The translations under genes were made by a program, and so were the position numbers. The notes under the pieces are model-generated. The model had not been told where the DNA came from and did not search any database. It saw only the letters and a program-made list of their open reading frames with translations. Source: Escherichia coli (GTDB lineage Bacteria > Pseudomonadota > Gammaproteobacteria > Enterobacterales > Enterobacteriaceae). From it: a stretch of DNA of 64,000 nt. Position 1 is the stretch's first letter; every line of letters starts with the position of its first letter. Where the stretch lies: NCBI RefSeq assembly GCF_024298765.1, contig NZ_CP101210.1; one strand, 5' to 3'. Shown here in pieces: positions 28,023 through 31,957 of the stretch.

Positions 28023-29015
28023 ATGAGTCAGAATACGCTGAAAGTTCATGATTTAAATGAAGATGCGGAATTTGATGAGAACGGAGTTGAGGTTTTTGAC
28101 GAAAAGGCCTTAGTAGAAGAGGAACCCAGTGATAACGATTTGGCCGAAGAGGAACTGTTATCGCAGGGAGCCACACAGCGTGTGCTGGACGCGACTCAGC
28201 TTTACCTTGGTGAGATTGGTTATTCACCACTGTTAACGGCCGAAGAAGAAGTTTATTTTGCGCGTCGCGCACTGCGTGGAGATGTCGCCTCTCGCCGCCG
28301 GATGATCGAGAGTAACTTGCGTCTGGTGGTAAAAATTGCCCGCCGTTATGGCAATCGTGGTCTGGCGTTGCTGGACCTGATCGAAGAGGGCAACCTGGGG
28401 CTGATCCGCGCGGTAGAGAAGTTTGACCCGGAACGTGGTTTCCGCTTCTCAACATACGCAACCTGGTGGATTCGCCAGACGATCGAACGGGCGATTATGA
28501 ACCAAACCCGTACTATTCGTTTGCCGATTCACATCGTAAAGGAGCTGAACGTTTACCTGCGAACCGCACGCGAGTTGTCCCATAAACTGGACCACGAACC
28601 AAGTGCGGAAGAGATCGCAGAGCAACTGGATAAGCCAGTTGATGACGTCAGCCGTATGCTTCGTCTTAACGAGCGCATTACCTCGGTAGACACCCCGCTG
28701 GGTGGTGATTCCGAAAAAGCGTTGCTGGACATCCTGGCCGATGAAAAAGAGAACGGTCCGGAAGATACCACGCAAGATGACGATATGAAGCAGAGCATCG
28801 TCAAATGGCTGTTCGAGCTGAACGCCAAACAGCGTGAAGTACTGGCACGTCGATTCGGTTTGCTGGGGTACGAAGCGGCAACACTGGAAGATGTAGGTCG
28901 TGAAATTGGCCTCACCCGTGAACGTGTTCGCCAGATTCAGGTTGAAGGCCTGCGCCGTTTGCGCGAAATCCTGCAAACGCAGGGGCTGAATATCGAAGCG
29001 CTGTTCCGCGAATAA
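28023..29015 (+). CDS. rpoS: RNA polymerase sigma factor RpoS (sigma-38)
   Basis: Track ORF 27987..29015; 330-aa protein from [21 protein letters not shown] recognised as RpoS; codon 33 is GAG (Glu). Confidence 0.95.
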
Positions 29016-29030
29016 GTAAGCATCTGTCAG

Positions 29031-29066
29031 AAAGGCCAGTCTCTTATGAGGCTGGCCTTTTTCTTT
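29031..29066 (+). terminator. Rho-independent terminator after rpoS
   Basis: 13-bp stem AAAGGCCAGTCTC / GAGGCTGGCCTTT with TTAT loop, followed by a T-run. Confidence 0.7.
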
Positions 29067-29092
29067 TGTATGGGGAGTTGGTATGTTTCGTC

Positions 29093-29125
29093 GCCTGGAT
29101 AAGACACGTCAGCGTCCCATCCGGC
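29093..29125. repeat. REP-like palindrome
   Basis: GCCTGGATAAGACACGTCAGCGTCCCATCCGGC, a REP-type imperfect palindrome between rpoS and hosA. Confidence 0.5.
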
Positions 29126-29135
29126 AATCAACATC

Positions 29136-29543
29136 CTATTTGCTCATCATCTTGCGCACCAGCTGCATAAACAGCTCCTGCTCTTCTCCACTCAAACGCC
29201 CCAAAAATTCCTCATCCACACTGTCACCTATCGGTATCGCCGCAGCAAGTATCTTTTCGCCTTCGGCAGTCAGCCAGACAAAGCGTCGCCGCTTGTCAGC
29301 GGCGTCATGTTCACGTCTGACTAAGCCACGATTTTCCATTCTTGCCAACATTTCTGCCAGCGTTGCTTTGGTGCTGACTGCTGCTTCTATCAGTGCCACC
29401 TGTTCGATACCAGGCTTATCAGCAATGGCGCGCATCACCGCGTACTGTGGTTTGGTCAGGTCAGGTAACTCGTGCTGCCAGCGAGCTGTATGCTGCTGAA
29501 AAAGCTGTCGTAACTGATGGAACGCTTTATTTCGTAACGCCAT
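29136..29543 (-). CDS. hosA: MarR/SlyA-family transcriptional regulator HosA
   Basis: Track ORF 29136..29576; likely 135-aa protein from MALRNKAFHQLRQLF; winged-helix MarR-like sequence; recognised as the SlyA homologue found next to rpoS in non-K-12 E. coli. Confidence 0.75.
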   Translation of the reverse strand: MALRNKAFHQLRQLFQQHTARWQHELPDLTKPQYAVMRAIADKPGIEQVALIEAAVSTKATLAEMLARMENRGLVRREHDAADKRRRFVWLTAEGEKILAAAIPIGDSVDEEFLGRLSGEEQELFMQLVRKMMSK

Positions 29544-29658
29544 GTAAACTCCGGGCAAACTATCTGCCGCTATCATAGCGGTTTTTCAGTGACGAAGAAG
29601 ATGTTGTTACTTTTCAGCGCTTGCCGCGATGAAAACAGAGGCGTATTTTAATAATAAC

Positions 29659-29672
29659 GTTCGTATACGAAC
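29659..29672. promoter_or_regulatory. Perfect 14-bp palindrome GTTCGTATACGAAC upstream of ecdB (candidate MarR-type operator)
   Basis: Perfect dyad read from the sequence, 17 bp upstream of the ecdB start, in the hosA/ecdB divergent region. Confidence 0.45.
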
Positions 29673-29689
29673 AATTTAGAGAGTAAGCA

Positions 29690-30283
29690 ATGAAACTGAT
29701 CGTCGGGATGACAGGGGCTACCGGTGCGCCTCTTGGTGTGGCATTACTGCAAGCGCTGCGGGAGATGCCGAATGTCGAGACTCATCTGGTGATGTCGACG
29801 TGGGCGAAAACCACCATTGAACTGGAAACGCCTTACAGCGCCCGCGATGTTGCTGCCCTCGCAGACTTCAGCCATAACCCGGCGGATCAGGCGGCGACCA
29901 TCTCCTCAGGTTCCTTTCGTACCGACGGCATGATCGTTATTCCGTGCAGTATGAAAACGCTCGCCGGTATCCGTGCCGGTTACGCCGATGGCCTGGTGGG
30001 GCGCGCGGCGGACGTCGTGCTCAAAGAAGGCCGCAAACTAGTGCTGGTGCCGCGTGAAATGCCGCTTAGCACCATCCATCTCGAAAATATGCTCGCACTT
30101 TCACGCATGGGCGTGGCGATGGTGCCGCCGATGCCTGCCTTTTATAACCATCCCGAAACGGTAGATGACATTGTCCACCACGTGGTAGCCCGCGTGCTGG
30201 ATCAATTTGGCCTCGAACATCCCCACGCCAGGCGCTGGCAAGGATTGCCGCAGGTCCGGAATTTTTCTCAGGAGAATGAATAA
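29690..30283 (+). CDS. ecdB: UbiX-family flavin prenyltransferase (Pad1-like; partner of a UbiD-type decarboxylase)
   Basis: 197-aa ORF MKLIVGMTGATGAPLG... typical UbiX/Pad1 fold; symbol from memory of E. coli O157-type annotation (also called pad1/kpdB). Confidence 0.8.
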   Translation: MKLIVGMTGATGAPLGVALLQALREMPNVETHLVMSTWAKTTIELETPYSARDVAALADFSHNPADQAATISSGSFRTDGMIVIPCSMKTLAGIRAGYADGLVGRAADVVLKEGRKLVLVPREMPLSTIHLENMLALSRMGVAMVPPMPAFYNHPETVDDIVHHVVARVLDQFGLEHPHARRWQGLPQVRNFSQENE

Positions 30284-31710
30284 TGGCATTTGATGATTTA
30301 CGCAGCTTTTTACAGGCGCTTGATGACCACGGCCAGTTACTGAAAATCAGCGAAGAGGTGAACGCGGAACCGGATCTGGCAGCCGCAGCCAACGCCACCG
30401 GGCGTATCGGCGACGGCGCGCCCGCGCTTTGGTTTGATAATATTCGCGGCTTTATCGATGCCCGCGTGGCAATGAACACCATCGGTTCCTGGCAGAACCA
30501 CGCGATTTCCCTCGGCCTGCCGCCAAACACCCCGGTTAAAAAACAGATTGATGAGTTTATCCGCCGCTGGGATAACTTCCCCATTGCCCCGGAGCGCCGC
30601 GCCAATCCAGCCTGGGCGCAGAACACCGTCGATGGCGACGAGATCAACCTGTTCGATATTCTGCCACTGTTTCGTTTAAACGACGGTGATGGCGGTTTCT
30701 ATCTCGACAAAGCGTGCGTGGTTTCCCGCGATCCGCTTGATCCGGATAACTTCGGCAAGCAGAACGTCGGCATCTACCGTATGGAAGTGAAGGGTAAGCG
30801 TAAGCTCGGTCTGCAACCGGTGCCGATGCACGATATCGCCCTGCATCTGCATAAAGCGGAAGAGCGCGGTGAAGATCTGCCGATTGCAATCACGCTCGGT
30901 AACGATCCGATCATCACCCTGATGGGGGCCACGCCGCTGAAATACGATCAGTCTGAGTATGAAATGGCAGGCGCGCTGCGCGAAAGCCCGTACCCGATCG
31001 CCACCGCCCCGCTGACCGGTTTTGATGTGCCGTGGGGCTCGGAAGTGATCCTCGAAGGGGTCATCGAAAGCCGTAAACGCGAAATCGAAGGGCCGTTCGG
31101 TGAGTTTACCGGGCACTACTCCGGCGGGCGTAATATGACCGTCGTGCGCATTGATAAAGTCTCTTATCGCAGCAAACCCATTTTTGAATCGCTCTATCTC
31201 GGGATGCCGTGGACGGAAATCGACTACCTGATGGGGCCAGCCACCTGCGTGCCGCTGTATCAGCAACTGAAAGCCGAGTTCCCGGAAGTGCAGGCGGTGA
31301 ACGCCATGTACACCCACGGCCTTCTGGCGATTATCTCCACCAAAAAACGCTACGGCGGCTTTGCCCGCGCGGTGGGCCTGCGTGCGATGACCACGCCGCA
31401 CGGTCTGGGCTACGTGAAGATGGTGATTATGGTCGATGAAGACGTTGATCCGTTCAACCTGCCGCAGGTGATGTGGGCGCTCTCCTCGAAAGTGAACCCG
31501 GCAGGGGATTTGGTGCAGTTGCCGAATATGTCCGTGCTGGAACTCGACCCCGGCTCAAGCCCGGCCGGTATCACCGACAAGCTGATTATCGACGCCACCA
31601 CGCCTGTCGCTCCGGACAACCGTGGTCACTACAGCCAGCCGGTGGTGGATTTACCGGAAACCAAAGCCTGGGCTGAAAAACTGACCGCTATGCTGGCCGC
31701 ACGTCAATAA
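30283..31710 (+). CDS. ecdC: UbiD-family (prenyl-FMN dependent) aromatic acid decarboxylase, catalytic subunit
   Basis: 475-aa ORF, start overlapping the ecdB stop; recognised as the UbiD family (yclC-like). Confidence 0.8.
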   Translation: MAFDDLRSFLQALDDHGQLLKISEEVNAEPDLAAAANATGRIGDGAPALWFDNIRGFIDARVAMNTIGSWQNHAISLGLPPNTPVKKQIDEFIRRWDNFPIAPERRANPAWAQNTVDGDEINLFDILPLFRLNDGDGGFYLDKACVVSRDPLDPDNFGKQNVGIYRMEVKGKRKLGLQPVPMHDIALHLHKAEERGEDLPIAITLGNDPIITLMGATPLKYDQSEYEMAGALRESPYPIATAPLTGFDVPWGSEVILEGVIESRKREIEGPFGEFTGHYSGGRNMTVVRIDKVSYRSKPIFESLYLGMPWTEIDYLMGPATCVPLYQQLKAEFPEVQAVNAMYTHGLLAIISTKKRYGGFARAVGLRAMTTPHGLGYVKMVIMVDEDVDPFNLPQVMWALSSKVNPAGDLVQLPNMSVLELDPGSSPAGITDKLIIDATTPVAPDNRGHYSQPVVDLPETKAWAEKLTAMLAARQ

Positions 31711-31720
31711 GGAGAACAAG

Positions 31721-31957
31721 ATGATTTGTCCACGTTGTGCCGATGAACAGATTGAAGTGATGGCGAAATCGCCGGTAAAAGATGTCTGGATGGTCTACCA
31801 GTGCCAGCATTGCCTCTATACCTGGCGCGATACCGAACCGCTACGCCGCACCAGCCGCGAACATTATCCCGAAGCGTTCCGCATGACGCAGAAAGATATT
31901 GATGACGCGCCGATGGTGCCGAGCATCCCGCCGCTGCTGGCGGAAGGTAAGCGCTAA
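31721..31957 (+). CDS. ecdD: small subunit of the phenolic acid decarboxylase (YclD-like, Cys-rich)
   Basis: 78-aa ORF with CxxC...CxxC spacing, directly downstream of the UbiD-like gene. Confidence 0.65.
   Translation: MICPRCADEQIEVMAKSPVKDVWMVYQCQHCLYTWRDTEPLRRTSREHYPEAFRMTQKDIDDAPMVPSIPPLLAEGKR

Follow-up and report, generated by a model that had tools for sequence, protein, structure and literature searches.

In the MarR/marO-type design of gene control, the regulator is a winged-helix dimer whose binding site, a short palindrome, lies in the spacer that separates its gene from a divergent target operon; it represses sterically and is relieved by a phenolic ligand. HosA, whose name stands for 'homologue of SlyA', shares the fold of the MarR/SlyA superfamily with SlyA. 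The HosA protein discussed here reaches 28.9 bits against the NCBIfam SlyA model, for which the cut-off is 120, and is therefore not a SlyA orthologue; the SlyA consensus site, which we take to be TTAGCAAGCTAA, is unrelated to the motif GTTCG-N4-CGAAC described below. PcaV of Streptomyces coelicolor is a MarR-family regulator of hydroxybenzoate-type aromatic acid metabolism. Its structures (PDB 4FHT/4G9Y) are among the closest solved relatives besides HosA itself (E 9e-16); PcaV is a distant homologue from another phylum, and the comparison covers the proteins.

The system closest to the one analysed here is the hosA-HAD locus of Escherichia coli UMN026, whose decarboxylase genes go by the names yclBCD, ecdBCD or vdcBCD, and the source for its HosA operator is reportedly Roy & Ranjan, Biochemistry 2016 (55:1120; PMID 26818787). 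HosA binds a 14-bp palindromic site of this locus in electrophoretic mobility shift assays (EMSA) and biolayer interferometry (BLI) and is released from it by 4-hydroxybenzoate (4-HBA) (Sci Adv 2018, PMC6261655; Nat Commun 2019, PMC6694116). A KD of ~4.7 uM for 4-HBA was reported on a sequence identical to the one found here. According to the summary of a preprint, the palindromic HosA site lies downstream of the transcription start, which points to a steric block, and 4-HBA induces the operon. A second preprint reports, second-hand, that HosA inhibits its own expression in UMN026.

The hosA-ecdB locus and the HosA operator

The window, that is the whole 64-kb stretch of DNA that was analysed, represents the rpoS region of the Escherichia coli chromosome, with nlpD and rpoS on the plus strand, the rpoS stop at 29015 and a strong rpoS terminator at 29029-29062. 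The gene hosA (29136..29543, minus strand) encodes a MarR-family winged-helix repressor of 135 amino acids and is divergent, across a spacer of 146 bp, from ecdBCD/vdcBCD (29690..31957, plus strand), which NCBIfam and the RefSeq annotation identify as a non-oxidative hydroxyarylic acid decarboxylase operon. The products of ecdB/vdcB (29690-30283), ecdC/vdcC (30283-31710) and ecdD/vdcD (31721-31957), all on the plus strand, score 311, 788 and 120 bits with the NCBIfam models VdcB, VdcC and VdcD, compared to cut-offs of 290, 650 and 30, respectively. For the hosA product the NCBIfam hits were to MarR-family models only, and a phmmer search against the PDB matched residues 1-134 to 'Transcriptional regulator HosA' (8AGA/8PQ4, E 2.9e-83), so that the gene names hosA and ecdB, which an initial annotation had assigned from the sequence alone, were right. 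RefSeq gives the same coordinates for strain 104, which is 100% identical, with the order rpoS, MarR gene, B, C, D, ygbN, and calls the products 'MarR family winged helix-turn-helix transcriptional regulator' and 'non-oxidative hydroxyarylic acid decarboxylases subunit B/C/D'. A segment of 1.2 kb from this region was found in 2404 of 5426 complete E. coli genomes and was always chromosomal.

The hosA start used by RefSeq is the ATG at 29543->29541. It is preceded at a distance of 5 nt by the Shine-Dalgarno sequence GGAG (29549..29552, minus strand), as read from the sequence, and the plus-strand ACTCC that covers it is conserved in the orthologue alignment. A Shine-Dalgarno-like GAGAG precedes ecdB (29679..29683, plus strand), with AGG conserved at the aligned position. 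A further in-frame ATG on the minus strand (29576->29574), in the centre of the palindrome discussed in the following section, lengthens the mechanically called hosA reading frame to 146 amino acids. This longer form was rejected because RefSeq takes the start of the 135-amino-acid form, GGAG stands before that start, and the cross-genus tblastn homology sets in at residue 1 to 3 of the 135-amino-acid form.

Two perfect palindromes are found in the spacer, referred to here as dyad 1 (next to ecdB) and dyad 2 (next to hosA). Dyad 1 (GTTCGTATACGAAC, 29659..29672) is a 7+7 palindrome that is separated by 17 nt (29673-29689) from the ecdB ATG at 29690, and the position and spacing initially assigned to it were exact. 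Perfect 7+7 palindromes occur three times in the window without a spacer and five times with a spacer of 1 nt, while shuffled sequences contained 4.1 +/- 1.6 and 4.5 +/- 1.9, respectively; within the 146-bp spacer, ~0.01 of each kind would be expected by chance. As such palindromes are not enriched in the window, palindromy alone is weak evidence, and position together with conservation across species must decide. Conservation strongly supports dyad 1 and gives no support to dyad 2 as a dyad of 15 bp.

Dyad 1 is the HosA operator of ecdBCD, which is already experimentally established and published. The gene pair, the sequence GTTCGTATACGAAC, the upstream flank CAGAGGCGTATTTTAATAATAAC and the position before subunit B are the same as in UMN026 (PMC6261655, PMC6694116), with only allelic differences in the 17 nt between operator and ATG, which read AATTTAGAGAGTAAGCA here and AATTAAGAGAATAAACA in the published oligonucleotide. 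The published flanks CAGAGGCGTATTTTAATAATAAC...AATTAAGAG match the window at 29636-29681, and the supplementary oligonucleotides carry the site between CAGAGGCGTATTTTAATAATAAC and AATTAAGAGAATAAAC, which equal the flanks in the window bar a few allelic differences. The machine-read supplementary table gives a 15-letter site with an extra T. This was treated as an artefact because both strands are printed with the same string, the text of the paper describes the site as 14 bp long and palindromic, oligonucleotide T_H carries GTTCGTATACGAAC verbatim, and a 59-mer rebuilt with the 14-bp site finds matches of 100% identity over its full 59 nt in 490 E. coli genomes, where they fall at the 5' edge of subunit B. 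The proposal that dyad 1 is a dimer operator of the MarR-family protein HosA that controls ecdBCD is thus borne out by a published 14-bp site with the same flanks that is bound in EMSA and BLI. The 64-kb window contains GTTCGTATACGAAC in this one exact copy, and a search of the window for other HosA targets using GTTCGNNNNCGAAC with one mismatch gave three extra matches compared to 2.75 expected, which is the level of chance.

Conservation was assessed using a protein-based search with one genome per species, which yielded 80 hosA loci (Escherichia, Klebsiella, Citrobacter, Salmonella, Enterobacter, Kluyvera, Kosakonia, Leclercia, Lelliottia, Phytobacter, Atlantibacter, Rahnella and others). 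Of these, 74 have a divergent ecdB, and 72 clean spacers from about 20 genera were obtained. GTTCG-N4-CGAAC is present in all 72 orthologous spacers, with an A for the first G in three Rahnella loci, and its distance to the ecdB ATG is 15-21 nt in Enterobacteriaceae, 24 nt in Entomohabitans and 35-36 nt in Rahnella. Of the 68 non-Escherichia loci, 65-68 retain complementarity in each of the five outer pairs, while the two central pairs vary freely (TATA, TGTA, TACA, TATG, CATA). Over 73 spacers, the ten outer positions show a conservation of 0.996 compared to 0.634 for the remaining spacer. The functional motif is accordingly GTTCG-N4-CGAAC, in which a HosA dimer would recognise the half-sites GTTCG and CGAAC across four tolerant bases.

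Some loci of the set deviate from this layout. Six hosA homologues from Pluralibacter, Superficieibacter, Cedecea and two Rahnella (L053, L066, L067, L072, L077 and L081) have no ecdB within the fetched flank, and in L070 a gap of 599 bp separates hosA from ecdB; these may be paralogues or rearranged loci. A metagenome-assembled genome (MAG) labelled 'Citrobacter sp.' carries, on a contig of 6 kb (DXKH01000072.1, L002), a HosA that is 99% identical to the E. coli protein, and the MAG has a second, Citrobacter-like copy with 77% identity (L018). The L002 contig is probably Escherichia DNA that was mis-binned into the MAG.

A simple sigma-70 scan with a threshold of 9 of 12 detected no site, the predicted ecdB promoter reaching 8 of 12; promoters were therefore scored with a position weight matrix (PWM) across the orthologues. 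The top ecdB-sense match in the window (score 9.6) combines a predicted -35 element TTGCCG (29621..29626, plus strand) over a spacer of 17 nt with a predicted -10 element TATTTT (29644..29649, plus strand). TTG is invariant in the alignment and T1, A2 and T6 of the -10 element are conserved at 0.9 or more, which places a conserved TTG-17-TAnnTT directly upstream of dyad 1. Among the 73 loci, 59 have their best ecdB-sense match in the corresponding position, with the -10 element ending 37-44 nt before the ecdB ATG. Dyad 1 starts 9 nt past the predicted -10 element, and with a transcription start predicted at ~29656-29658 it would occupy ~+3 to +16 of the ecdBCD transcript, which agrees with the statement in the literature. 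HosA on dyad 1 would hence block RNA polymerase at, or just past, initiation at ecdB, and 4-hydroxybenzoate, a substrate of the decarboxylase, binds HosA and causes its release. The divergent layout is that of the general MarR-family design; the E. coli spacer differs in that its one site lies just past the predicted transcription start and not over the -35 and -10 elements.

The palindrome upstream of hosA

Dyad 2 (CCGCTATCATAGCGG) is a perfect 7+1+7 palindrome that is followed on the plus strand by TTTTT and lies 23 nt upstream of the RefSeq hosA start. The palindrome, its location in the hosA 5' region and the T-run had been described correctly in the initial annotation, but the coordinates 29577..29591 were ten too high, the true position being 29567..29581. 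Its symmetry is lost in other genera: of 68 non-Escherichia loci, 59-65 keep the inner three pairs (TAT/ATA) complementary, while for the outer four pairs the numbers are 30, 10, 1 and 40, and only the core CTAT-S-ATAGC is conserved. Within the 13 Escherichia alleles the right arm ATAGCGG is unchanged, and the left arm varies (T at 29567, T at 29568 or A at 29570) with no compensating change. The perfect allele of the window is present in at least 936 complete E. coli genomes, and an imperfect allele, TCGCTATCATAGCGG, occurs as an exact 41-mer in at least 1124. No 14-mer inside dyad 2 exceeds 5 of 10 positions of the HosA motif, and its arms, CCGCTAT, are unlike GTTCG. The proposed role of dyad 2 as a HosA site is therefore not supported, as neither the sequence of its arms nor their conservation across genera and within E. 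coli agrees with it and its core appears to act as a -10 hexamer.

Most likely, this core is the -10 element (TATGAT, 29577->29572, minus strand) of a proximal hosA promoter, P1, with a predicted transcription start at ~29563-29566 on the minus strand. TATGAT agrees with the sigma-70 consensus TATAAT in 5 of 6 positions, and the hosA-strand profile of the orthologues is T A T n A T, with T1, A2, T3, A5 and T6 at 0.92-0.99 and a free centre base. The sigma-70 PWM ranks TTAAAA-17-TAT[G/C]AT at the core of dyad 2 first among the hosA-sense matches of 54 of 73 loci, and the -10 element of this match ends 27-31 nt before the hosA ATG. The cross-genus pattern of the core thus agrees with a sigma-70 -10 element, whereas the -35 element of the window itself is weak and degenerate (TTCTTC, 29594-29599, 16-nt spacer, score 4.9), since the spacer of Escherichia lacks ~25 bp relative to other genera. 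For this reason the assignment leans mainly on the other genera. A TATnAT followed by A is self-complementary by construction, which accounts for the palindromic core, and the outer CCGC/GCGG arms with the T-run look like an accidental, Escherichia-specific and polymorphic extension. A plus-strand promoter with TATCAT (29571-29576) as its -10 element was considered as well and rejected, since its -35 element would fall into the hosA ribosome-binding site and scores poorly.

The account as a whole, with dyad 1 as the HosA operator and the core of dyad 2 as the proximal hosA -10 element rather than a HosA site, is in our judgement likely to be correct. That both dyads are HosA operators instead, with dyad 2 acting in autoregulation over the hosA promoter and dyad 1 acting on ecdB, seems very improbable. 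MarR proteins commonly autoregulate. In favour of this model, dyad 2 combines perfect symmetry with a location in the hosA 5' region and with overlap of the predicted hosA -10 element, which is a classic place for a repressor, and there is the second-hand report of HosA autorepression in the second preprint. This is opposed by the half-site CCGCTAT, and the best secondary 14-mer of the spacer matches 7 of 10 positions, which is the chance level, and lies outside dyad 2. Dyad 1 (hereafter O1) is invariant over ~20 genera, so the specificity of HosA is conserved, yet the outer pairs of dyad 2 are complementary in just 1 to 40 of 68 loci. Moreover, the second HosA-like site of other genera (see below) adjoins the ecdB -35 element and not dyad 2, and the literature describes a single 14-bp site. 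Dyad 2 and the T-run (29582..29586, plus strand) also resemble a weak intrinsic terminator, which, as an Escherichia-specific element of the plus strand, could insulate ecdBCD from read-through or antisense transcription that arrives across hosA from the rpoS side. A terminator scan matched 29566-29582 with a 7-bp stem, a 3-nt loop and TTTTT, the T-run is shared by each of the 13 Escherichia alleles, and of the three variants of the left arm two exchange C for T, so that G-U pairs would still form in a plus-strand RNA. We regard such a function as quite unlikely: the hairpin has -9.1 kcal/mol (z -1.8, with 13 of 200 shuffles as good) while the rpoS terminator, which lies 500 bp upstream, reaches -25.1 kcal/mol (z -7.3), dyad 2 is not at the end of any plus-strand transcription unit, and arms and T-run are absent outside Escherichia, though many of the loci there share the divergent hosA-ecdB layout. 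Allele E1V33 breaks the stem, and C-to-T is the commonest mutation anyway. Palindromes beside AT-rich promoter DNA readily trigger the scan, which flagged dyad 1 too, on the minus strand.

The core CTAT-S-ATAGC might instead be the site of a different regulator that is common to these Enterobacteriaceae, and not merely a -10 element. It is a 4+1+4 palindrome in most genera, and its right arm ATAGCSG and the T at 29583 are conserved past the hexamer (C29579 at 0.95, G29581 at 0.90, T29583 at 0.95), which a plain -10 element explains only in part. The T A T n A T pattern with a -35 element at 17 nt in most genera is, however, explained by a promoter, the conserved G at -14 would fit a partial extended -10 element, and the conserved flank is one-sided, unlike a dimeric site. 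We know of no candidate factor for this core and hold its recognition by another regulator to be rather improbable. For dyad 1, it could be argued that the palindrome functions at the RNA level, through a hairpin of the ecdB 5' leader or through termination on the minus strand, and not as a protein-binding DNA site, as it lies inside the predicted 5' UTR and is called terminator-like on the minus strand by the scan. Its hairpin has just -4.9 kcal/mol (z -1.4), and the stem is invariant in 73 sequences without any compensatory change, which argues for base-specific protein contact and not for RNA pairing. An Rfam scan of 28900-29800 with E up to 1 gave no match in the spacer, and the sub-threshold matches fell on the rpoS terminator or were noise. 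The published EMSA and BLI data on HosA binding effectively refute a pure RNA function of dyad 1, the probability of which we consider negligible.

Proposed route of autoregulation and the shorter spacer of Escherichia

With dyad 2 read as part of a promoter, the question of hosA autoregulation comes back to O1. The autoregulation that had been suggested from the two palindromes is in line with the second-hand report on UMN026; a route through dyad 2 is not supported, as this dyad is not a HosA-like site. A search of the E. coli spacer for a second, degenerate operator returned as the best 14-mer TTTCAGTGACGAAG at 29584, with 7 of 10 positions, for which ~0.5 occurrences are expected by chance and which lies outside dyad 2. 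Since O1 is the only HosA-like site in the E. coli spacer, any autoregulation must run through it. The top hosA-sense PWM match in the window (score 9.2) is a candidate distal promoter, P2 (29645..29674, minus strand), with the -35 element TTGTTC (29674->29669), a spacer of 18 nt and the -10 element TAAAAT (29650->29645). Its -35 element overlaps the right half of O1, and its transcript would be expected to start near 29638. P2 recurs in many orthologues, but its bases are already constrained by O1 and the ecdB -10 element, so that this recurrence is not independent evidence. Plausibly, HosA on O1 would occlude the -35 element TTGTTC of P2 and might in this way repress hosA, which we tentatively propose as the route of autoregulation. 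A search of the literature for the hosA promoter or a second HosA site found nothing further.

In 35 of 73 orthologous spacers, a second HosA-operator-like site (O2) was detected that typically reads GATCG-N4-CGAAC and matches 8-9 of the 10 outer positions. It is located 72-77 nt upstream of the ecdB start codon, at a distance of 56-57 bp to O1, with the ecdB -35 element following 4 nt downstream, and is present in Klebsiella, Kluyvera, Enterobacter, Leclercia, Lelliottia, Pseudocitrobacter and Pluralibacter (loci L007, L010, L015, L019-L021, L023, L026, L028, L032, L034-L036, L038, L039, L041, L043, L045-L052, L054-L060, L063, L064 and L068). Among the 73 spacers, O2 is absent from all Escherichia, the Citrobacter freundii group, Salmonella, Kosakonia and Rahnella. 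The region of the window that aligns to O2 (~29600-29616) contains no equivalent site. The Escherichia spacer measures 145-146 bp compared to 151-174 bp in most other genera, the difference falling at 29582-29620 of the window, and the ~25 bp that are missing include the TTAAAA -35 element of the otherwise conserved hosA promoter.

These differences could be read as a rewiring, in which the ancestral state is a two-operator switch with a strong proximal hosA promoter and Escherichia represents a derived form that has lost O2 and the proximal -35 element, with O1 alone controlling both divergent promoters, and in which the extension of dyad 2 could have gained a role. We consider this scenario conceivable, although doubtful. 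If it were true, O1 would act as a roadblock at +3 of ecdB and at the same time occlude the -35 element of the distal hosA promoter, and the hairpin of dyad 2 with the T-run could either terminate transcription of the plus strand and thereby insulate, or form a hairpin within a long hosA leader.

Within E. coli, the spacer (29520-29715) varies far more than the genes on either side. A query with this 196-bp segment retrieved 1216 genomes at 90-95% identity and 157 at 80-90%, compared to 2260 genomes at 95-99% for the 1.2-kb query, and two main allele classes can be distinguished, one like the window and O157:H7 and one like O104:H4. The mutS-rpoS region is known to be prone to recombination, and the polymorphism of the spacer fits this. 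The block GATGTTGTTACTTTTC at 29600-29615 is near-invariant in the 13 Escherichia alleles, with one substitution in E. albertii. Two genomes carry disrupted versions of the locus. In E. coli 15.TR.026_OXA (NZ_CP032145.1, 1-5110; L090), IS26 and a class 1 integron (intI1, dfrA17) replace the hosA side; the match to the window begins at query base 87, the ecdB promoter and operator are kept, hosA is gone and ecdC is split by IS10A. In E. coli JBEHAAB-19-0176 (171-196; L086), ecdB is annotated as a frameshifted pseudogene and the operator is intact.

Implications for annotation and HosA-based sensors

The HosA operator, its ligand and the way in which the decarboxylase operon is repressed have been in the literature since 2016 and already serve in biosensors for 4-hydroxybenzoate, so that the present findings are not new in kind. 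Their value lies in annotation: for ~44% of complete E. coli genomes and for ~20 related genera, dyad 1 can with high confidence be labelled as a HosA operator, while dyad 2 should be annotated neither as an operator nor as a terminator. As by-products, the comparison provides a cross-genus HosA motif, GTTCG-N4-CGAAC, with a tolerant centre, and, from Klebsiella, Enterobacter, Kluyvera and related genera, a putative second operator of natural origin, GATCG-N4-CGAAC, that may be of interest where HosA-based sensors are tuned.
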